Part shown: positions 2 to 34,989 of the stretch, piece after piece
Position numbering within the stretch: position 1 is the stretch's first letter
Layout: the number at the start of each line of letters is the position of its first letter
Origin: a virus
Lineage: Duplodnaviria > Caudoviricetes
Length of the DNA: 64,000 nt
Strand: one strand, 5' to 3'
IMG/VR virus record: IMGVR_UViG_3300020577_014401
Span: 32,001-96,000 of that record
The notes under the pieces: generated by a model
Seen by the model: only the letters and a program-made list of their open reading frames with translations
The model's database searches: none
Told to the model about the DNA's origin: nothing
Position numbers and translations under genes: made by a program

Positions 2-604
2 ATCTACGACATTCTCCGTTCCGCCGGCATGGTGACGAATGAAGAAGTCGCCAGAGCTCTCGGCCAAGACGATGTGGACATCGTCGGCAGCCTCGCCGGG
101 TTCCTCGGGAATGCTTCTCTGGCTGGCCGGACTTCAAGGAACGCGTCGGTCATGGGTGGGCCTCTGGCGGTCGGTGTCGATCTGCCGGGAGCAATGCAAA
201 AGTCCGAACGGACCAGTTTGCTGCAAGGGCTCGACCAATCGATTCAGTCCACTCAACAGAAGCCTGAGACGCCCAGTCTGTTGCAGGGACTCAGCCAAGC
301 AATCCAGTCCACTCAACAGAAGCCTGAGACGCCCAGTCTGTTGCAGGGACTCAGTCAATCGATCCAGTCCGTTCAGCGGAAGAAGAACCCATTCCGAGAG
401 GGAATTGAAGCCGATAAACTTGGCAATGAGGGCGGTGCCGGCATGACTGGGGCCCTCCTCGAAGTCGGCAAGCGGGTGGCTAAGATCGCGGGCGGCAAGG
501 TTTCAAGTAATCAGAGTGGCCCTCTTCAGATCAGCATCGCCAAGCTGATCGTCAGCAGAGATGGAAGCGCTTCGCTGCAGAGCGAAGGATCTGCCAAGCC
601 TTGA
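2..604 (+). CDS. C-terminal part of a large tail-associated protein (possibly tape measure), 5'-partial
   Basis: Frame is open from the window edge; Gly/Ala/Gln/Ser-rich with 20-aa repeats; lies just upstream of baseplate-like genes. Confidence 0.4.
   Translation: MYDILRSAGMVTNEEVARALGQDDVDIVGSLAGFLGNASLAGRTSRNASVMGGPLAVGVDLPGAMQKSERTSLLQGLDQSIQSTQQKPETPSLLQGLSQAIQSTQQKPETPSLLQGLSQSIQSVQRKKNPFREGIEADKLGNEGGAGMTGALLEVGKRVAKIAGGKVSSNQSGPLQISIAKLIVSRDGSASLQSEGSAKP
213..370 (+). repeat. 60-bp tandem repeat (about 2.6 copies) encoding SLLQGLSQSIQSTQQKPETP
   Basis: Units start at 213, 273 and 333; bases 245-300 and 305-360 are nearly identical. Confidence 0.95.
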
Positions 605-616
605 AAGGAACCGACC

Positions 617-1183
617 ATTTATCTCTTCTCCAGCGAACCCGGTGTCGTCGGTGCCATGGTGACGGGCGGCGCCATGCCGTTCGCCATTTTCATCGGCGGT
701 AACGACGCAGTGCCGGCGTTCCCGGCCCCGTGGCTGTCCAAGGCGATCCTGACCGGGTACCGGGTCGCCAAGAAAGCCGGATTGGGGCTGAGCCACACAT
801 TGATGGAGCGGATCTACGCGCACATCTTCGGGGAGAAGGCCGGCGTCGCCATGGTCACCGGACTCGGATTCGCCGGGATGTGCAACACCCGAGGCGGGTA
901 CGTCGGCTTCGATGCAGTCCATGCCTACTTTGACGATGTGAACGCTTCAAACCAAGGGGCACCGGTCACACTGATCTTTGGACCGAGGACATCCATTTCC
1001 GGCATGATGACCGAGTTGGAATTCTCGGTCGACGATCCGTCCACCGGACTGGGCTCGTTCTCCTTCCAATTCCGGACGTTCCCTCGATCGAAACGGGCCT
1101 TGCCGTTCCTCAGCCTGTTGATCGACGACCAGATCCCGGAGATTCCTCCGGCTGAAGGTGATGCCGAATTGGTCGGGGGGTGA
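617..1183 (+). CDS. Hypothetical tail/baseplate-region protein (possible ATT start at 617; first ATG at 656)
   Basis: AAGGA SD at 605-609 precedes an in-frame ATT; stop overlaps the next start. Confidence 0.6.
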   Translation: MYLFSSEPGVVGAMVTGGAMPFAIFIGGNDAVPAFPAPWLSKAILTGYRVAKKAGLGLSHTLMERIYAHIFGEKAGVAMVTGLGFAGMCNTRGGYVGFDAVHAYFDDVNASNQGAPVTLIFGPRTSISGMMTELEFSVDDPSTGLGSFSFQFRTFPRSKRALPFLSLLIDDQIPEIPPAEGDAELVGG

Positions 1184-1686
1184 TGGAAATGGTCAACCAC
1201 GTTCGCACACTGCTGCTGAATTCGCCGAGCGCCAGCCCGCCTTACGCCGCCGGCGAAGAATACGTACCGATGGACTTCGTGCCGGCGGTTTTGCCGCAGT
1301 ACCTCCAAGACGTCCGATCGACGCTGTTCGGAGAGAACGCCGACCGGGCCTCTCTCAACTTGCAATTGGCCAGGTTGCTGTCGTGCCTGCATGCGTCTCC
1401 GCTCATGGACGATTTGACCGCGGATGACCCGAGGATCTCTTACAATCCGACCGAACCGGCTTACGACGCCGATCCTGAAGCGACTTCCCACAACATGTTC
1501 AGTGTCGCTTCGGCGGAGGGGGCGGATTTGAGCGGCGTCTTCAGGCGCGGAAGGTCGGCCGCGGAAACACGTTGGACGGACTGGTGGTTGGACTCGTCGG
1601 CGCCGGCGACACTTCGTGTCGGCGCTCTGGCTCTCGCCCTGGCGTCCAGGACGAAAGATGTCATCGACGGCACTTACGACGGATGA
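1180..1686 (+). CDS. Hypothetical virion-region protein
   Basis: ATGA overlap with upstream gene; codon usage like neighbours. Confidence 0.65.
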   Translation: MMEMVNHVRTLLLNSPSASPPYAAGEEYVPMDFVPAVLPQYLQDVRSTLFGENADRASLNLQLARLLSCLHASPLMDDLTADDPRISYNPTEPAYDADPEATSHNMFSVASAEGADLSGVFRRGRSAAETRWTDWWLDSSAPATLRVGALALALASRTKDVIDGTYDG

Positions 1687-1689
1687 TTC

Positions 1690-3930
1690 ATGGCCAGCGA
1701 ATGGTTCCGGGCGGTTCGAGTCAAGACATTCATCGGCATCCCGAGGAACGACCCGGGGCCGAGCGAGGGCACGTACGGATTGCCCGGCCTGGACCGGGTA
1801 CTCGACGAGGCCGGAGTCCTGTCGCAACTGAAGCCGCTGCTCGACCTCCACACGATTCCGGAACCGCTCCACGTTTCGTTGCGGGATCAAGGGTACAGCA
1901 ATCGGTTCGACACCCCGGAAATCCTGGTGATCGACGCGATGGCCGTGCAGACCGACGGCGGTCTGAATGAGATCCCTCGGGCGACGTGCATGGTGCCGAT
2001 CGGACGAGCGATCTCCGACCACGACGACAAACGTCCGTCGGTGCTCGCCGGAGACTCGGACGCCGATTCTGCGTCGATTCTTCAGGTCATTGAGAAGTAC
2101 CTGACCCGTCATGTCCCGGCGAAGATCTTCATCATTCCAAAGACGGTGTCCGCGGCCGGCGAAGGGGATCGTGCCGATAACATCGATTGGGCTGACGAGC
2201 CGATGGTGCTGTTCGACGGCATCGTGACCGGACCGAGCCACCAAGCCTCCGCTGAATCGAATCAGGGAGCCGCCGTTCTCCATCTTCTGCACTTCCTCGG
2301 CGGCCTGACATTCTCGTCGTCGCTGTCGGGACAGGTTTCGGCCGGCGGCACTTTGCCGGTCACCTACCAGATCGGAGTCTTCCCGAACGCCACGACCGGG
2401 GCTACGACGTCGTTCACCATATTCGGGGCCATCGCCGCGACGCTTGCGGGCGGGGAGGCCCTCTCCACTGACTTCTGGGGGTACCAGTTGCCGTCCCGGA
2501 CGAGGCCCGACGCCGACCCGACTCGGCCTCCTGTCACAGTCCCGGCGAGCACGGGCCTGAAAGGGATGCTCTGGCAGTTGGCGGACACGCCGTTGTTCAA
2601 CTGGCAAGTCGTCGGGACCTCGGATTTCGGAGGTTCGTTTTGCGGCGACAAACCGCCCAATTCCCTCAAGAACAACGGGGCCCTCGGCGCTCTCGGTCGA
2701 ATCGAGCCCCTGTGGCCGGAGTGGGGCAATCTCAATGTCGGCCCCGGAGGCGGGGTCAACGCCGGACCAGTTGTCGCCGGGGCTCTTTGGTCGTCGATGA
2801 AATCGGCGATTGAAGACGCAGCCGTTGTCGATTCGAACGCCGTCGATCGAAACGACATCATCACGAGAATGGACAACAACTTCTACTCGGTCGGCTACCG
2901 ATACGGTGTGCCGATCTCGTTCTATTTGTCCGGCGGCAACCAGCCTGTGAACGCGGCGACGACCGAGCAGGGCCGGGCATTCGCGTCCGACATCACCGGA
3001 GCTTCGTTCGAAACACTCAACTCGTCCTCGTTCTGGGAACTCTTGACCGGCCAGTACGCCGGTCGATACCAGATCGGCGTGATGCCGATGGCCGACCGGG
3101 CCGTCATCATTCCGCTCGCCCCTGTGCTGGAGGGGGCCTGGCAGTTCATCCGCGGCAGTGAGATCTTCACTTGGTCGGACGACATCCAGCTCCCCGTTCC
3201 CGTTCGCGGAGTGATGCTGGCTTCGAGCCGGATGAGCGGAACCGGAGTGTTGGTCGCCGGATTCAAACCGTTCGAAGCCGGCTACGACTCGTGTCAACAA
3301 GGCGTGTTCGTGACCAAGGAGATGCCGCCTTGGTTGCTGAGCACCCGATCGGCGCCGGCGACGACATCCGGGGACACCGTGCAGTTCGGTCCCAAGAATG
3401 TGGTGGGGGCACCGTGGGCAATGGGGCCGGCGTCGGCCGCCATCCTCGGCGGTGCGGCCGCGTCGTTGAAAATCGGAAACCCCGGGCCGGAAGAGAAGTC
3501 GACGGCCGCCCGGCTCGCCAAGTCCATGTGGCAGCAGGAGCGACTGAGGTACCGATCGATCTACGTGACCGGTCGGTTCAGGGTCGACATCGCCCCCGGT
3601 TCGACGGTAATCGCGGATCTGCCGATGGACAAGCACACCCGGCAGGCTCTTGGTCCGAACGGGCCACTCGGGTCCATCGCCGACCAAACGGTCCAGGGTC
3701 TGGTGCTCCGCGTCACGCACTCCATCGATGAGGAGGGCGAGTCCATGTCGACCTCCTTCCAAATCGGGTTCCCTCGGTTGGAGTCCGAGACCGCTCCCGG
3801 TCAACCGCTGCACGCCAACATTCATCCGTACTGGCGAACCGCTTGCTTCGGAGCGCCGTGGTGCGACTCGACATGGATTCGGGAACGGTTGGGGGCCGCG
3901 GCCAGCCTGGCTGAACTTGATCTCTTCTGA
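1690..3930 (+). CDS. Putative baseplate hub / tail protein
   Basis: 746 aa; C-terminal 'VTGRFRVDIAPGSTV...VLRVTHSI' resembles hub-protein C-termini; baseplate context. Confidence 0.45.
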   Translation: MASEWFRAVRVKTFIGIPRNDPGPSEGTYGLPGLDRVLDEAGVLSQLKPLLDLHTIPEPLHVSLRDQGYSNRFDTPEILVIDAMAVQTDGGLNEIPRATCMVPIGRAISDHDDKRPSVLAGDSDADSASILQVIEKYLTRHVPAKIFIIPKTVSAAGEGDRADNIDWADEPMVLFDGIVTGPSHQASAESNQGAAVLHLLHFLGGLTFSSSLSGQVSAGGTLPVTYQIGVFPNATTGATTSFTIFGAIAATLAGGEALSTDFWGYQLPSRTRPDADPTRPPVTVPASTGLKGMLWQLADTPLFNWQVVGTSDFGGSFCGDKPPNSLKNNGALGALGRIEPLWPEWGNLNVGPGGGVNAGPVVAGALWSSMKSAIEDAAVVDSNAVDRNDIITRMDNNFYSVGYRYGVPISFYLSGGNQPVNAATTEQGRAFASDITGASFETLNSSSFWELLTGQYAGRYQIGVMPMADRAVIIPLAPVLEGAWQFIRGSEIFTWSDDIQLPVPVRGVMLASSRMSGTGVLVAGFKPFEAGYDSCQQGVFVTKEMPPWLLSTRSAPATTSGDTVQFGPKNVVGAPWAMGPASAAILGGAAASLKIGNPGPEEKSTAARLAKSMWQQERLRYRSIYVTGRFRVDIAPGSTVIADLPMDKHTRQALGPNGPLGSIADQTVQGLVLRVTHSIDEEGESMSTSFQIGFPRLESETAPGQPLHANIHPYWRTACFGAPWCDSTWIRERLGAAASLAELDLF

Positions 3931-28997: not shown

Positions 28998-29588
28998 ATG
29001 TTTCAGCTCATCATGCGCTCCGGCTACGAGATGAAGATCGAGGGCTGCCCCAGTTACGGCCTCGAAGCCATCGATTTCAGAAGGCAGCACAACCTGCCCG
29101 AAGAGCCGTCCAGCAAAATCAAACCGCCGTCCGGTGCGTTCCAAGACGAGAAGTTGGTTCGGCAGCTGCGAGCTGCCGGCGCCTACATCGATATGAGCGG
29201 CGACTGGGTGTTCGACGGGCAATCGATCATCGAGCTGCACGGCCGCGGTAACGGCGCTCACTCCAAGCATGGCCCGTGGCACTACGGATCGGCCCTGCCC
29301 GTCGAACCGGCGGCTATCAAGGCGTACATCGAAAACCCGTGCGCGGACACGCTCTTCGGTGTGGCCATGGCGATCTGCCAGCACAACGCCGAGCAGATGA
29401 AAATCATCGAAGCCGAGCAGCGCACTGTCGAAGAAGCGGCTCGCAGCAAGGAGGCGGCTCGGCTCTGTCTCAAGGACGAGATCGACAAGCTGGAGTCGAA
29501 GATCAACTACCTTCAGTCCGAGCTGCAGGAATCGAAGGAACGGATCGCTGAACTTGAAGACGAACTGGAGGCCCAGAAGGTCAGTTGA
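28998..29588 (+). CDS. Hypothetical protein with C-terminal coiled coil
   Basis: AAAGGA SD; heptad pattern LKDEIDKLESKINYLQSELQES. Confidence 0.7.
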   Translation: MFQLIMRSGYEMKIEGCPSYGLEAIDFRRQHNLPEEPSSKIKPPSGAFQDEKLVRQLRAAGAYIDMSGDWVFDGQSIIELHGRGNGAHSKHGPWHYGSALPVEPAAIKAYIENPCADTLFGVAMAICQHNAEQMKIIEAEQRTVEEAARSKEAARLCLKDEIDKLESKINYLQSELQESKERIAELEDELEAQKVS

Positions 29589-31299
29589 TCAGCCCGGCGA
29601 TCGAGAACTCCGGCCACGATTGTGTCAGCGACCACAACCAGCTCGCGCCGAAATTGACGGCCGCGCTGAAGTCGTCGCAGACGGTCTTGCTCGACCTGCG
29701 AATGCGGAACGCGCTGCCCGACGGTGTGTCGACCTTGTCCTCCACCAAGGACAGGAAATCGTGCAGGTGGCCGGGCTCGTCGCGGCTCTTGTAGTCGTAC
29801 TCGAAGAACCTCACCTTCCCGTACCGGACGGCCTGGCTCAACACCTGCAATGACTTCGACTTGTGGATGGAGTAGTACCCCAACCCCGAGCCGCTCGGCG
29901 GCTTGTGGTACACGGGTCGGGCCGGAACTCCGTCGACCCCGGAATAGAGCAAACGGGCGATCCGGTCGGGCGGCCACCCGCTGTGGATGAACGCCGCTTC
30001 GGAGGCGGTCCCGATGCCGCCGCCGATGTCATGGGCGATGAACGACACGTTGCAGGCCTTGGCGATTCTCAGAATCTGATTGGCTTCTTCGATGCGGTCG
30101 GTCGACGGCGGGAAGCCGAAGCCGTGAATGACTTCGGCGACCCCGTCGTTGGCCAGGCCGATCACGGCTCCCTTGGTGCGGCTCACTCCGTCGTCACCGC
30201 CGCCACCCCAGTCGACTCCCAGCACAACGACCTGGTAGTGCTTGGACCGCATGGAGGCGTTGGCCAGCGTGTTCGGGCCCAGCACCGCCGCTTTCTTCAA
30301 GTCTTCGATCGAGAACAATTTGACGGCGAGGTCGTACGCTTCGCCAAGGCACTCGTTGTAGAACTTGGCGGTCGAGTAACCGCCTTTGCCGGCCATGAAC
30401 CCCAGCAGTTCCTTCCACTTGTTCGGAAGGGCGTAGTGGATGGGGAAGATCACCTGCGGGGCGTAGTACCCGGCGACGTCCCGAAGCCGCTCCGGGAAGC
30501 GGTGGACCCACCGGCCGAACCGCGGGTTGATCGGCTGCTTGGGCCCGCACCGCTTGCACACGGTCCCCGGGCGCTTTTCGGAGATGTCGTCCCGGTAAGG
30601 GCCGATCATCGCCAGGAGGTGGCCCTCGGGCTCGATGGCGCAAATGTTGTCGAATCCGCACGCCGGGCACTTGATCTGCCAGACGCCCTGGCTGGAGTCC
30701 TGCCACTCGCCTTCGAGGTACGTGTCCTTGGTCAGGCTGGTGCCGCTGATCCACAACTGCGGCTGTTTGGCGGCCCGTGTACATTGCTGGATGGCCGGCA
30801 GGTCGCTCACGTCCATCGACTGGCCTTCGTCGACGTACAGGATCCTGCCGGTCTTGGAACGCAAACGAAGAGGATCTCCCTGGCAGTACGAGAAGTGGAT
30901 CACACTGCCGTTGGTGAACGGACCCCGGATGCGGACGTTGCCGAGATTGGACGTTTCGCTGAGCAGGGTCCGGATGGGGCTGTTGTCGATCATCGGACGG
31001 AACACGAGCGACGACAGGCCGTCCGACTGGCTTTGCAGCGGCGTGACGACGATGACTCGCGTCCCGTCGATGACCGCGCACTCGACGCACATCCGGGCGG
31101 CGATCTGCCAGGTCTTTCCGATCTGGCGGCTGGAGCGGTGGACGATCCGGGGAGGCTGCCGGGCCGAGAACACGTCCTCGAACGGAAAGAAGTCGTCGAG
31201 CCGCATGGGCTGCCGACCGATTCCTTCGACATTGACCCGGATCAGGGCCGGAAGGATGTGGGCGAACGTGTCGATCCGGTTGTCAGGTTTGTAGCTCAA
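29581..31299 (-). CDS. terL: Terminase large subunit
   Basis: Walker A 'SRQIGKT', Walker B 'LYVDE', Zn pairs CPAC/CKRC, nuclease 'GVDWGGGG', C-terminal 'DDFSAAVNF'. Confidence 0.85.
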   Translation of the reverse strand: MSYKPDNRIDTFAHILPALIRVNVEGIGRQPMRLDDFFPFEDVFSARQPPRIVHRSSRQIGKTWQIAARMCVECAVIDGTRVIVVTPLQSQSDGLSSLVFRPMIDNSPIRTLLSETSNLGNVRIRGPFTNGSVIHFSYCQGDPLRLRSKTGRILYVDEGQSMDVSDLPAIQQCTRAAKQPQLWISGTSLTKDTYLEGEWQDSSQGVWQIKCPACGFDNICAIEPEGHLLAMIGPYRDDISEKRPGTVCKRCGPKQPINPRFGRWVHRFPERLRDVAGYYAPQVIFPIHYALPNKWKELLGFMAGKGGYSTAKFYNECLGEAYDLAVKLFSIEDLKKAAVLGPNTLANASMRSKHYQVVVLGVDWGGGGDDGVSRTKGAVIGLANDGVAEVIHGFGFPPSTDRIEEANQILRIAKACNVSFIAHDIGGGIGTASEAAFIHSGWPPDRIARLLYSGVDGVPARPVYHKPPSGSGLGYYSIHKSKSLQVLSQAVRYGKVRFFEYDYKSRDEPGHLHDFLSLVEDKVDTPSGSAFRIRRSSKTVCDDFSAAVNFGASWLWSLTQSWPEFSIAGLIN

Positions 31300-31603: not shown

Positions 31604-31667
31604 TCCCAGTGTACTAGGATCTTACGACGACCGGCCACACGTCTCCATGTCCAGGAGTCGCTCCACC

Positions 31668-32096
31668 GTGAAGAAAAAGCAGTCCGTACGGCCGGGAGAA
31701 CTCATCCCGGCCGTCACGCGGGTGCTCGAGCTGGTCACCCACCTCGAAGCCGACATCGTCAAACACGCCGACCCGAGGTGGGTCGCCAAGCACGGTTCAC
31801 GGCTGCGTCGAATCGAGGACGCGAACATCTACTTCTACCGCGACTCCGAAGAGGTCCGGAAGTACACGCGAATGCCCAAGGGCGACGACATTCCCTTCCA
31901 CGAGGCCGCCGCGGCCTACCTTCAACTCTCCGCCACCTGTCTCAAGATCGCGATCGACTACGAAGCCGCCGCCGTCCGCGAGAACGAACTGTTCGCGAAG
32001 CTGATGCGGGACGGACCCGAGGAGAAGCCCCTCGTCCCCGTCACCGCCGGCGGTTCGGAAGACGAGGACGACGCGGTCGACGAAGACGACGAATAA
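31668..32096 (+). CDS. Hypothetical protein with basic N-terminus and acidic tail (alternative ATG 31647)
   Basis: AGGAG SD before GTG; ends EDEDDAVDEDDE. Confidence 0.7.
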   Translation: MKKKQSVRPGELIPAVTRVLELVTHLEADIVKHADPRWVAKHGSRLRRIEDANIYFYRDSEEVRKYTRMPKGDDIPFHEAAAAYLQLSATCLKIAIDYEAAAVRENELFAKLMRDGPEEKPLVPVTAGGSEDEDDAVDEDDE

Positions 32097-32181
32097 GCCC
32101 GTGCAGGGGCTGTTCAAACTGCAACTTGAAGAGAACATGGCCACCACTACGAGCCCGTGCAGGGGCTGTTTGAACTGCAAC
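32096..32181 (+). repeat. Two 30-bp hairpin-containing direct repeats separated by 26 bp
   Basis: AGCCCGTGCAGGGGCTGTT(CA/TG)AACTGCAAC at 32096-32125 and 32152-32181, 28/30 identical. Confidence 0.9.
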
Positions 32182-32424
32182 CCGAGCAAAATAGGACTAT
32201 TCCTCTCCTAATCCATGAACTAAGTGAGGAATGCCTCATTCTGACAATTGTTCATGAGTAGGGTGCTCGTTCCGTCATGTTGTATTCACAACATAGACGT
32301 CATCCTTCGGAGAATAGGATGACTGACGTCATCCTATTCTCCTCAGGAAAAATAAGAAACACGCCCGGCCGCTGCGCGGCCTCGGCGTGTTTCTTGGGGC
32401 GGGCCGCCAGCGGCCCGCCTTTTT
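32182..32424 (+). ncRNA. Candidate structured non-coding RNA or origin
   Basis: AT-rich; five or more consecutive inverted repeats including a perfect 15-bp stem (32309-32342) and a 12+6-bp stem (32354-32395); ends in a terminator. Confidence 0.5.
32398..32424 (+). terminator. Rho-independent terminator
   Basis: GGCGGGCCGC-CA-GCGGCCCGCC-TTTTT. Confidence 0.8.
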
Positions 32425-32456
32425 CTCCACCAAACCGGAAGAGAGGTGCCACTACG

Positions 32457-32613
32457 TCCGAACTGACCGAAGGCGCGCTCAACGAGCACCAAGCGACGCC
32501 CGACCGTTCCGAATTGATCATCAGCGCGCCGAAGAAGAAGCGCACACGAACCGACCGTTCCGAACTGAAGAGCACCAAGCGCGCCGGAACATTCTGTTCC
32601 AAGTCCGAATTGA
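32457..32613 (+). repeat. Spaced 10-bp repeats TCCGAA(C/T)TGA
   Basis: Copies at 32457, 32508, 32559 and 32604 (spacing 51, 51, 45). Confidence 0.8.
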
Positions 32614-33566
32614 CCATCCGTCCCGAACTGTTGCCTCCGAAGTGGCCGAAGTACGTATCCAAGGCTGTGGTTCCGATGCGCAAGAGCAACGGTGCGGGCG
32701 CATGGTTGGCACGCCAGATTGTTGCACACACTTACACGCAAAAGGCTTACGGCAATAAGGTCAATTTCGACTTGCTTAACGACGATGAGAAGTTCGCCTG
32801 CGCCGCGTCGATGTGGACCAGGGCCGTTTCCGTCATGCAGTACAACGGCACGGGCTGTGGCTCCTCCGCCAAGGCGGAGCGGATGGCGCGGCGCATGTAC
32901 GGGTGCTATGCGCCCGGGTACAAGTTCGGTTCGCTCTGGCATGAACGCCCGACGTGGGACCTGTGCAAGCACGAACTCTGTCCGTACTGCTACGCCCGTC
33001 GCGTGGTCAACATGTTCAAGGATCTCGCCAACGCGTTCAAGAATCGCCCCGAAGGCTCTGAGATCTGGATCTCGGCGTTCTACACCTTCGACAATCGGAA
33101 GGAGTTCGCGAAGAAGCTCTGCAAGATCCGGCCGGCCTGCGCGGCGGCTTTTTACCTTCCGACCGGTCAGACCGACGGCGACGACGGCTGGAAGATCCAC
33201 GGCGTGATGATGACCGACGACCCGGAGAAGTTCCGGACTCGAAAGTACAAGCGACGCATCTACAATTCGAATCAGATCGCCAGGGCGCTGGCGATGTGGA
33301 TGCGTTACCCGCGGCCGTGGTATGCGAGGGGAGCGGTCAAGACCGCTCAGCTCATGGCCCATGTGTTCGCGTCGCTTCCCGACGGCAAGCATCGTTACTC
33401 GACGTTCGGCGCGGCCCGAGCCGATTGCCGTCCCGGTTGCTCGTTCATGGACTGGAAGGCGTATGACGCGGGTGTGCCGCAGGATGTGATCGAGAAGTGG
33501 GAGCGCAAACGGGCGGATATCCGGCTATCAACTGGTACTCATCAACAGGAGTCGCATGAGGCGTAA
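32514..33566 (+). CDS. Divergent Rep_1/IS91-like (HUH superfamily) Zn-finger protein; start uncertain (TTG 32514 or 32610, ATG 32676)
   Basis: 'KAERMARRMYGC', 'CKHELCPYCYARR', 'WKIHGVMM', 'MRYP', 'HRYSTFG' occur in the same order as Rep_1 motifs. Confidence 0.5.
   Translation: MIISAPKKKRTRTDRSELKSTKRAGTFCSKSELTIRPELLPPKWPKYVSKAVVPMRKSNGAGAWLARQIVAHTYTQKAYGNKVNFDLLNDDEKFACAASMWTRAVSVMQYNGTGCGSSAKAERMARRMYGCYAPGYKFGSLWHERPTWDLCKHELCPYCYARRVVNMFKDLANAFKNRPEGSEIWISAFYTFDNRKEFAKKLCKIRPACAAAFYLPTGQTDGDDGWKIHGVMMTDDPEKFRTRKYKRRIYNSNQIARALAMWMRYPRPWYARGAVKTAQLMAHVFASLPDGKHRYSTFGAARADCRPGCSFMDWKAYDAGVPQDVIEKWERKRADIRLSTGTHQQESHEA
33516..33528. promoter_or_regulatory. Recurrent palindromic motif copy (GATATCCGGCTAT)
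   Basis: Ends 27 bp before the hldE start. Confidence 0.6.
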
Positions 33567-34989
33567 ACCGCATGTCTGGGTCGTCGGGGACTCGATGCTG
33601 GACATTTCCGTCCGTGCCGAGCAGTTCCCTCGAACTCCGGAAGACAGAACCGTGCCGGTTCTCCCGGCATACGATCTCGAAGCCCACGAGGTCCAGCCCG
33701 GTGGTGCCGCCAACGTCGCTGCCAATCTGTCCGCGATGGGGTGTGACACGATCTTGTACAGCCGATTCGGAAGAGACAAGGCTTCGACCAGGTTGATCGG
33801 CGACCTCGATGCCGCCTATGGCGTCGACTTCGGTCTGGTGAAGGAGCATCGTGACGGACATGCCACCGTCAAGACTCGGTACTACGAAGATGACCGGCTG
33901 ATCGCCCGCCACGATTCCAATTTTGATCAGCCTCCGATCAGCCACCAGTTCAAGGATGATGAGCCTTCGCCCGACGCTGTCGTGCTCACCGATTACGGAC
34001 GTGGCGTGATCGACGAGCAGTCCTTGAGGTCCTGGGTTTCCGCTTGCCGCGACCGCGGTGTTCCGCTGTTCGGGGACCCGAAGTTGGGTCGTACGGCGAT
34101 GTGGAGGAGCCACCCCGGTGTGATCATGGTCGCCAACTTCAAGGAAGCTCGGGAACTGGTGGCCGACCCCGGCAAGGGATTGTGCTTCGGTCGTGACGAC
34201 GCCATGCGGATGGCGATGAAGCTCGCATTGGACTTCCCACGGTGCGTGGTCAAGTGTGGTCCGTTCGGGTCGGCGTACTGCGATCTCGACGGTTTTGGGA
34301 GGACGCCCGCTTACGGACCTCTGGCGGTGTTCGACGTGCAAGGTGCGGGCGACACATACTTGGCTGGTCTGGTGACGGCGATGTGCGGCGGCGCCAGCCT
34401 GGAGTTGGCGTGCAACTTCGCATCGGCTGCGGCGGGCGCGGCCGTCGGTGTCCGTGGGACCGCGGTGATCGACCGGAAAACTGTGCTGGACACGATTCGC
34501 AAGTCGATCGTCGAGCCGACGGGGGCTTGTGCTTACGACGACGCGATCGCCAGTGCTCGAATTCGTCGGATGTACGGGCACAGCATCGGCCTGGTCAACG
34601 GATGCTTCGACCTGCTGCTTCCGCATCCGGGTCATCTGGCCCTGATCTCCGAGGCCGCCAAGAAGTGCGACTACCTGTATGTCGGCATCGACTCCGACCG
34701 ACGCGTTGCTGTGTTGAAGGGCGACGGCAGGCCGAGAACTCCGGAACAGGACCGGCTCGCCGCTGTCGCCGCTCTTCGTGGTGTCGATACGGCGTTCATC
34801 TTCGACACCCCGATCGAGAAGGTGGTTTCCGACTTGAAGCCGGATGTGATCGTCAAGGGATCCGATTACCGGGACAAGGGCGTTCCGGAAGCTGTTCTTC
34901 TTGACGAGTGGTCCGGTCGATTGGAGTTCGTCGAATTGGTTCCGACCAAGTCGACCACTCTCCGAATCGCGGAGATCGATGGTGAATGA
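33556..34989 (+). CDS. hldE: Bifunctional heptose-7-phosphate kinase / heptose-1-phosphate adenylyltransferase
   Basis: PfkB domain 'VVGDSMLD', 'PGGAANVAANL', 'TDYGRG', 'DVQGAGDT'; nucleotidyltransferase domain 'NGCFDLL.HPGH', 'LKGDGRP', 'VKGSDY', 'STT'. Confidence 0.92.
   Translation: MRRKPHVWVVGDSMLDISVRAEQFPRTPEDRTVPVLPAYDLEAHEVQPGGAANVAANLSAMGCDTILYSRFGRDKASTRLIGDLDAAYGVDFGLVKEHRDGHATVKTRYYEDDRLIARHDSNFDQPPISHQFKDDEPSPDAVVLTDYGRGVIDEQSLRSWVSACRDRGVPLFGDPKLGRTAMWRSHPGVIMVANFKEARELVADPGKGLCFGRDDAMRMAMKLALDFPRCVVKCGPFGSAYCDLDGFGRTPAYGPLAVFDVQGAGDTYLAGLVTAMCGGASLELACNFASAAAGAAVGVRGTAVIDRKTVLDTIRKSIVEPTGACAYDDAIASARIRRMYGHSIGLVNGCFDLLLPHPGHLALISEAAKKCDYLYVGIDSDRRVAVLKGDGRPRTPEQDRLAAVAALRGVDTAFIFDTPIEKVVSDLKPDVIVKGSDYRDKGVPEAVLLDEWSGRLEFVELVPTKSTTLRIAEIDGE

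Follow-up and report, generated by a model that had tools for sequence, protein, structure and literature searches.

Within a 64,000-nt window of a tailed-phage genome (bases 32001-96000 of the 109,992-bp IMG/VR virus record IMGVR_UViG_3300020577_014401, Caudoviricetes, with an estimated completeness of 56%), a short non-coding tract and the gene that follows it combine three elements. These are a pair of CRISPR repeats of type V-M, the type served by the effector Cas12m, a leader of four stacked hairpins, and a gene encoding a diverged relative of the Rep_1 replication proteins. At least two elements unrelated to each other make up the tract, and the array, the leader, and the gene do not form one module. 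The explanation that we favor, with moderate confidence, is a composite locus in which a type V-M mini-array, a gated leader, and a Rep_1-type gene lacking the His-hydrophobic-His (HUH) motif are linked by a protospacer for the fourth spacer of a longer array present in the same phage.

A reading made from the nucleotide sequence, without database searches (the sequence-only reading), had described hairpin direct repeats, stacked stems, and a terminator in front of the open reading frame (ORF), and these features are present. Folding of the tract 32090-32450 yielded -169.9 kcal/mol versus -109.6 ± 5.8 kcal/mol for shuffled sequences (z = -10.3), and the GC content at 32100-32400 is ~0.49 versus ~0.62 in the surroundings. 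The direct repeats, R1 and R2, are 30 nt each and identical at 28 of the 30 positions; no equal match was obtained in 100 shuffles, and both mismatches lie within the unpaired L3 segment. R1 folds into a stem (GCCC/GGGC) with a loop (UGCAG) that pairs with the tail (CUGCA), and its 3' end is AAC. Covariation was analyzed in an alignment of eight repeat units from three loci, namely the window and the related contigs L004 and L003. The alignment fits an H-type pseudoknot consisting of a 4-bp stem and of five loop bases pairing with a tail located 8 nt downstream. All 72 cells of the alignment are paired in the structure.((((.[[[[[))))........]]]]].., with compensatory changes in four of the nine pairs (GCCC/GGGC, GGUC/GACC, and GGUU/AACC in the stem; U-A to C-G in the loop). 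Sliding of the partner segment collapsed the pairing, and none of 500 shuffles reached the observed covariation score. Units of L004 and of L117, a viral contig retrieved by a pattern scan of IMG/VR, contain G-U wobbles that are compatible with this strand only. Copy number varies, with two units in the window, three in L004, three in L003, and six in L144, a bacterial contig described below.

The crRNA (CRISPR RNA) of Ap Cas12m reads ...AGCCCUGUGCAGCGGGCUCAAAGCUGCGAC followed by the guide, with the layout AGCCC U GUGCAG C GGGCU CAAAG CUGCGAC, and this organization into stem I, stem II, and ...RAC is also that of the Ms and Go crRNAs (PMC11013384). In the structure of Cas12m2, the 36-nt scaffold comprises a pseudoknot and a stem, A(-2) and C(-1) are read base-specifically, and a 17-bp heteroduplex is formed without any trans-activating crRNA (tracrRNA) (PMC10442227). 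The repeat units analyzed here end in ...CTGCAAC, in the manner of published Cas12m crRNAs, and their likeness to the Ap, Ms, Go, Tf, and Un crRNAs (Table S5, PMC11013384), including the ...RAC end, was judged by eye. We conclude that the repeat pair at 32096-32181 consists of type V-M (Cas12m) CRISPR repeats. The sequence-only reading had treated the pair as the cognate hairpin or origin element of the downstream protein, a proposal that received no support. Because a type V guide sits 3' of its repeat, the segment following R2 would act as a second guide. A search of Rfam (E up to 10) returned chance-level matches only, the repeats being without any match. R1 with its flank resembles the phiX174 origin over 8 nt (CAACTTGA), but this likeness was dropped because the other units do not conserve it.

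The same phage carries a much longer array (locus L151, referred to as the main array), in which regular spacers of 33-40 nt separate 36-nt repeats (GTGACAAGGCCGTGCAGGGCCTGAAAGAACTGCAAC); the contig begins inside a repeat. The presence of a main array of at least 18 related repeats in the same phage indicates that the window pair is a satellite mini-array of a CRISPR type already carried. An effector gene was not found next to the main array, where the ORFs encode a Gly-rich protein of 831 aa and one of 1253 aa that contains intein/LAGLIDADG domains; the former, which adjoins the array, was rejected as an effector since it is Gly-rich and not Cas12-like. Contig L117 contains many units of the repeat family, distributed in two arrays, in which loop and tail co-vary and several pairs are G-U wobbles. 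Its arrays flank the gene for a protein of 706 aa in which a Cas12f1-like TNB domain was recognized (E 2.5e-11), the best PDB sequence match of which is 'CRISPR-associated DNA-binding protein Cas12m' (E 2.9e-45). The L117 arrays are located on the minus strand (~365-913 and 3158-3418), and their spacers, of 14-44 nt, are uneven, which is unusual for CRISPR. Cas12m is a DNA-binding, non-cutting effector that forms a roadblock to transcription or replication; its protospacer-adjacent motifs (PAMs) are T/C-rich, and its functional targets include ori and transcribed genes.

The main array and the window are connected by the fourth spacer of the former. Spacer 4 (ATTCCACCAGACCGGAAGAGAGGTACCACTACGTCCG; G000:C1:310-346) matches the window segment 32424-32460 at 33 of the 37 positions, with mismatches at guide positions 1, 2, 10, and 25. 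The 5' flank of this protospacer (32420-32423) is TTTT, a T-rich PAM. The protospacer sits directly after the last terminator hairpin of the leader and spans a conserved box (CCGGAAGAGAGGTGCC / GGAAGAGAGGTG). The site also occurs in L005 and L006 (33/35) and in L144 and L004 (29/32). In L003, a CRISPR repeat is fused to the leader segment matched by spacer 4, in nearly the same register as in the main array. Since mismatches 1 and 2 adjoin the PAM, the resident copy of the leader probably escapes the spacer 4 guide, by analogy with the general behavior of Cas12 enzymes. Independently from spacer 4, the first spacer of the main array (G000:C1:14-53), which may be truncated, matches a gene of L005 exactly over its 3' 20 nt (L005:6506-6525; E 3e-5, small database), its PAM-proximal half being unmatched.

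The leader located between the mini-array and the gene consists of four hairpins, designated A to D. Analysis of five loci with RNAalifold retrieved the four hairpins, with 56 pairs of which 21 display compensatory changes. Leader fold z-scores were -10.3 for the window, -9.8 for L007, and -6.6 for L011, and hairpin stacks upstream from the homologous gene were also found in L008, L012, L013, and L011. Hairpin B is built on a perfect palindrome, the 3' arm of which is present a second time upstream, in direct orientation (GACGTCATCCT at 32296-32306), and this copy permits alternative pairing. The resulting three-copy word makes two mutually exclusive pairings possible in the window, L003, and L007, and its forward-reverse-forward arrangement recurs in the latter two loci with a different sequence. 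Hairpin C has an outer stem that co-varies around an invariant inner GGCCGC/GCGGCC stem. Hairpin D is a GC-rich stem-loop (32398-32419) followed by TTTTT, as expected for an intrinsic terminator; a simple terminator scan called part of hairpin C only. Upstream from hairpin A, the box TCTGACAATTGT may be a -35-like promoter element of the leader; a convincing -10 element was not found, and a consensus promoter scan made no call there.

Comparison of relatives separates the leader from the repeats. In the phage locus L007, the protein is 45% identical and the leader has the same architecture, with a different sequence and without any clear CRISPR unit. Since at least one relative has the leader without the array, the leader goes with the gene and the operon rather than with the CRISPR, and the structured tract is separate from, and older than, the CRISPR repeats. 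The leader accompanies the gene in relatives (L003, L007, L008, L011, L012, and L013); the distant L010 homologue (24% identical) has no leader, and its neighboring genes overlap. Either gated read-through or production of a short terminated RNA is suggested by the tandem arrangement of terminator-like hairpins heading an early operon.

Lambda nut and HK022 put are phage leader RNAs that control read-through of terminators. The leader of the window resembles them in that a conserved hairpin stack with terminator-like elements heads an early operon, and differs from them in that it has no sequence or Rfam similarity and no antiterminator protein was identified.

The gene downstream from the leader was delineated by comparison with its homologues. 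The listed ORF start at 32277 was rejected as an open-frame artefact because the frame from there runs through the hairpins. Similarity between homologues begins near 'IRPELLPPKW' (~'...IRPELLPPKWPKY'), and the start is likely to be TTG 32513 or a nearby codon. TTG 32513 aligns with GTG in L003 and with TTG in L004, and L003 also has an ATG immediately following the conserved GGAAGAGAGGTG box. In-frame copies of the word TCCGAAYTGA occur in the 5' part of the ORF and give rise to 'SEL'-type repeats that the L003 and L007 homologues lack. These copies may act as DNA or RNA sites or may just reflect an N-terminus of low complexity. An indel of 3 nt that preserves the frame in L004 indicates that this region is probably coding. 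The reading frame and all of the protein motifs quoted in the sequence-only reading are present.

A full-library search identified a family of 27 cluster representatives (245-379 aa), none of which is annotated. With residues numbered from the translation of window:32610-33563, the invariant or near-invariant positions are C99, C119, C124, C127, R130, P147, A176, Y233-P234, and G267. The four Cys residues form a zinc site that aligns with C37, C60, C65, and C68 of the Rep_1 alignment. The Pfam Rep_1 profile (PF01446) scored 11.8 bits versus a cut-off of 33.2, over model positions 9-36 only, i.e. the zinc motif, and weak Rep_1 matches were obtained with three of 28 family members (best E 0.0029). 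Comparison by hhalign with eight plasmid Reps, used as the Rep_1 set because a diversity search gave only near-identical pC194 Reps, returned E values of 5e-4 to 7.5e-4 with 25-30% probability. In the collinear extension of this alignment, which is of low confidence, the CxxxxCPxC motifs align, as do EIWISAFY with FIFLTLT and K-I-H with H-F-H, and the near-invariant Tyr233 ('RYP') falls within 1-2 residues of the catalytic Tyr214 of pC194; global hhalign gave a meaningless alignment. The family hidden Markov model picked a plasmid Rep_1 protein (E 7e-5, small database), and the ESM-Atlas feature neighbors of the protein carry Rep_1. Pfam, PHROGs, and NCBIfam left the protein without an assigned family, tblastn against 50,697 GenBank phages gave no match, and a profile search of PDB sequences returned nothing below E 0.8.

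The AlphaFold2 model, which is confident (predicted local distance difference test score of 89.9), has a ferredoxin/RRM-like core (residues 132-243). Foldseek did not match this model to any PDB entry. The best PDB row of VIA-align was the HUH-type SIRV1 ORF119 (Z 4.8, root-mean-square deviation 5.3, 96 residues), tied with GGDEF domains and the reverse transcriptase palm. In BFVD, the top Foldseek rows had E values of 1e-4, and several named microvirus replication initiators appeared at E 0.02-0.05.

The HUH position is occupied by K-I-H in the window and by R, Q, S, Y, and other residues elsewhere in the family, and no His is conserved there across 28 family representatives. The sequence-only reading had considered the protein as Rep_1-like with the second His apparently missing. 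The concordant, albeit weak, profile, hhalign, BFVD, and ESM lines agree with the first part of this statement, but the protein fails as Rep_1 proper on both the HUH motif and the Pfam cut-off. The motif is degenerate, as stated, but according to the low-confidence alignment with pC194 RepA it is the first His that is missing here, and the family conserves neither. The protein would thus be derived from Rep_1 with loss of the metal site, and is more likely to be a DNA-binding or recognition protein than a classical nickase.

These comparisons also bear on the alternative that the protein is a HUH or rolling-circle enzyme, with the repeats and hairpins serving as cognate sites where it recognizes or nicks single-stranded DNA, so that they would constitute an origin or a transposon end. 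Collinearity with Rep_1 extends over the zinc motif, the motif-I strand, the HUH position, and the Tyr close to the catalytic Tyr, and the structural neighbors include microvirus Rep models (E 1e-4 to 0.05) and SIRV1 ORF119 (Z 4.8 as the best PDB row). All close relatives and several of the distant ones have long perfect palindromes upstream of the gene, the block from ~31768-31808 to 33516 is found in at least three genomic contexts, and Cas12m itself can target an ori. We nevertheless consider this alternative unlikely since the 28 family representatives conserve no His at the HUH position, hairpin loops of 4 nt are too short for typical HUH nick sites, and the repeats are accounted for by Cas12m-type CRISPR, with G-U wobbles that favor RNA. 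The distant L010 homologue, moreover, has no upstream non-coding tract.

Table 1. Features of the locus (window coordinates unless another sequence is named).
Feature	Coordinates	Strand	Source or position
CRISPR repeat R1, type V-M / Cas12m scaffold	32096-32125	+	direct-repeat search, alignment, published Cas12m crRNAs
Spacer, guide 1, 26 nt	32126-32151	+	between R1 and R2
CRISPR repeat R2	32152-32181	+	direct-repeat search, alignment
Putative guide 2, boundary inferred	32182-32217	+	crRNA architecture from PMC10442227
Box TCTGACAATTGT, CTGACA invariant in four loci	32240-32251	+	multi-locus alignment
Leader hairpin A, small	32273-32299	+	fold and RNAalifold
Leader hairpin B, perfect 15-bp palindrome at 32309-32342, 4-nt loop	32296-32342	+	fold and RNAalifold
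Leader hairpin C, GC-rich	32354-32395	+	alignment and RNAalifold
Leader hairpin D and T-run, intrinsic-terminator-like	32398-32424	+	fold and RNAalifold
Protospacer of main-array spacer 4	32424-32460	+	match to G000:C1:310-346
TCCGAAYTGA word, five copies, in frame ('SEL' repeats)	32456-32631	+	5' part of ORF
Rep_1-like zinc-ribbon protein, start uncertain	32513-33566	+	homologue alignments, profiles, structure model
hldE-like PfkB and cytidylyltransferase gene	33556-34989		downstream of Rep-like gene
Small ORF, ~148 aa, basic N-terminus, acidic tail ...EDEDDAVDEDDE, start uncertain	31649-32096	+	ORF list
Large terminase, lambda-GpA-type	29581-31299	-	left of the mini-array
Main CRISPR array, at least 18 repeats, locus L151	G000:C1:1-1250		outside window, 32 kb upstream of window start

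The locus is bordered on the left by the terminase gene and the small ORF and on the right by rightward DNA-metabolism genes, which comprise the hldE-like gene followed by sbcD and sbcC. L007 keeps the order terminase (minus strand), small ORF, leader, Rep-like gene, PfkB and CTP_transf gene, sbcD, sbcC. The small ORF has a full-length homologue in this syntenic phage locus (L007 5151-5555), and Pfam, PHROGs, and NCBIfam gave no family for it. The Rep-like gene directly adjoins the hldE-like gene in the window, L007, L008, and L012, and in L010, with 24% identity, a PfkB-type hldE-like gene is found ~2 kb downstream. Persistence of this link across very divergent phages suggests a functional tie between the two genes. 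L011 has an ORF of similar size (484 aa) in the position corresponding to that of the hldE-like gene.

A block extending from 31768/31808 to 33516 is common to contigs with different flanks, at 78-95% nucleotide identity. It starts within the small ORF, of which it includes the 3' part, and continues over the mini-array, the leader, and the Rep-like gene. According to blastn, homology with L003 and L004 starts at 31768/31808, so that the 3' half of the small ORF forms the left edge of this cassette; parts of the block are unaligned or missing in L003 and L005. The cassette has non-phage flanks in L003, L004, and L005. L144, which is a 208-kb contig of a Gemmataceae metagenome-assembled genome (JAXMBB010000011.1), harbors the cassette at ~200.3-202.4 kb, among a sulfatase gene and DUF5131 genes, and nucleotide identity of the cassette in this genome is 87-95%. 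No homologue of the phage terminase was found in the Gemmataceae genome. Since the gene is stably linked to the hldE-like gene in phages, transfer from phage to chromosome appears to be the likelier direction, and Gemmataceae would be a likely host lineage. In L003, a cas6 gene (509-1225, minus strand; PF09559, E 1.8e-45) lies directly upstream of the cassette and near the contig end. Processing of the repeats by Cas6, which this gene first suggested, was set aside since only one such case was seen, at the end of a contig, and Cas6 is not required in type V-M.

The distribution of the cassette raises two further possibilities. According to the first, which we regard as speculative and rather doubtful, the 1.75-kb cassette (mini-array, leader, and Rep-like gene) would have been exchanged between a large phage and Gemmataceae chromosomes by recombination at CRISPR repeats and at spacer-protospacer pairs; the leader-directed Cas12m guides of the phage would then be the sign of its conflict with a copy, chromosomal, satellite-like, or decoy, of the head of its own replication operon, and the Rep-like protein could be the contested replication or recognition factor. 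The second possibility is that the mini-array is a non-functional by-product of recombination, between an array with a leader-derived spacer and the leader itself, that has been carried along with the gene. The fusion of the third repeat of L003 to the leader, in nearly the same register as main-array spacer 4, points in this direction, as do the variable copy number among near-identical cassettes (2, 3, 3, and 6), the irregular spacer lengths, and the cas6 gene adjoining the L003 cassette. Compensatory changes, however, keep all scaffold pairs in every unit, which argues for continued selection on the RNA fold, and a by-product origin is accordingly rather unlikely in our judgment.

A physical genome end at the leader and repeats, such as a cos site or a hairpin telomere, was also considered. 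Five independent contigs (L005, L006, L008, L012, and L013) stop at most ~270 nt upstream of the homologous gene, and their ends fall inside the region of repeats and palindromes. Contigs from four sequencing runs across the locus displayed low-coverage breaks only, and neither joints nor ends; a 148-kb contig of one run (X1) includes the stretch. Long contigs pass uninterrupted through the region, and the breaks coincide with the palindrome and the repeats; on these grounds the genome-end interpretation was rejected as unsupported, and assembly breakage is the most likely origin of these contig ends.

The composite-locus explanation would operate as follows. The segment from 32096 to ~32217 would be a two-repeat satellite mini-array of type V-M; if transcribed, each repeat would fold into the stem and pseudoknot scaffold bound by Cas12m, with the guide located 3' of ...CTGCAAC. 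The leader (32240-32424) would most likely gate transcription into the early DNA-metabolism operon, which includes the Rep-like, hldE-like, sbcD, and sbcC genes, acting as an attenuator, an anti-termination site, or a source of a short RNA. The first gene of this operon would encode the diverged Rep_1-type zinc-ribbon protein that has lost the HUH metal site. The 3' edge of the leader would be a Cas12m protospacer for which the phage's own array holds a spacer. Finally, the spacer 4 guide would silence the same operon in co-infecting related phages or in chromosomal copies of the cassette, and the phage itself would escape.

Several observations weigh against this explanation. No cas12m or TNB-domain gene was detected, using the TNB family and the L117 protein as queries, either in the 110-kb, 56%-complete record or in the cassette-bearing Gemmataceae genome, and the effector may be encoded by the missing part of the phage genome or supplied by the host. 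Neither guide of the mini-array could be matched to the phage when up to 5 mismatches were allowed, to the Gemmataceae genome when up to 3 were allowed, or to IMG/VR over 20 exact nt. The mini-array has repeats conserved over only 30 of the 36 nt, and related mini-arrays have irregular spacer lengths; its repeats could be decaying remnants. The match to the leader involves one spacer, the seed mismatches of which could equally mark an obsolete record of an old target, and the putative regulatory role of the leader is deduced from its structure.

The missing effector gene and the guides without detectable target are also what would be expected if the mini-array were an RNA anti-CRISPR or decoy, its repeat-only RNAs soaking up host Cas12m or loading it with harmless guides. 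All scaffold positions are intact, and viral solitary repeat units and mini-arrays have been proposed as inhibitors of cognate effectors (PMC10120712). A long regular array with diverse spacers in the same phage argues for use of an effector rather than its inhibition, and Cas12m was not found in one candidate host genome; this makes the decoy alternative quite improbable.

The composite-locus explanation can be compared with systems that are already known, namely type V-M systems and virus-borne mini-arrays. The repeats of the window resemble those of type V-M arrays (Bigelyte et al., 2024, PMC11013384; Omura et al., 2023, PMC10442227) in stem I and in the H-type pseudoknot forming stem II, in the ...CUGC(A/G)AC 3' end abutting the guide, and in a repeat sequence close to that of ApCas12m, in a type that needs no tracrRNA; the one protospacer identified for the phage likewise has a T-rich 5' flank. 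They differ in that no cas12m was found beside them or in the available record, that they belong to a large phage apparently of Planctomycetota rather than to a bacterial chromosome or plasmid, and that the mini-array has two repeats only, conserved over 30 nt. Virus-borne or regulatory mini-arrays (Medvedeva et al., 2019, PMC6858448; Shmakov et al., 2023, PMC10120712) also have two repeats, one spacer, and no adjacent cas gene, and here too there is evidence that spacers carried by a virus are directed against its close relatives. Most cases described so far are of type I, in addition to V-A, whereas the effector of type V-M silences and does not cut; furthermore, the spacer matching relatives sits here in the long array and not in the mini-array. 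With Rep_1 (PF01446, pC194 RepA) and the initiators of Microviridae, the protein shares the C-x4-CP-x-C-x2-R(R/K) motif preceded by a fourth Cys, a hydrophobic strand at the FLTLT position, (R/K)-Y-(P/S) near the position that the low-confidence alignment gives to the catalytic Tyr, and a predicted ferredoxin-like core. Unlike these proteins, the family has no conserved HUH histidines, scores far below the Pfam cut-off (11.8 versus 33.2 bits for the window protein), and is encoded by large double-stranded DNA phages, beside or near an hldE-like gene.

What is new is the combination of a virus-borne mini-array and of type V-M in a large phage, the self-related protospacer heading a replication operon, the cassette common to phage and chromosome, and the uncharacterized family of HUH-less Rep_1-like proteins. 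Cas12m, a compact effector that can be programmed to bind DNA and does not cut it, currently attracts engineering interest and has been described from bacteria in the literature cited above; its repeat family is found here in a large phage, probably infecting planctomycetes, as both a long array and a mini-array. The analysis also defines an unannotated Rep_1-derived family without HUH, linked to an hldE-like gene across very divergent phages, and provides a likely host lineage, Gemmataceae, for this group of phages. A spacer that targets, in close relatives, the head of the operon for replication and repair would represent natural CRISPR interference in a conflict between viruses or between a virus and an island. 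If the cassette is indeed exchanged between phage and chromosome, this conflict would be a transcription-silencing analogue of that between ICP1 and PLE.

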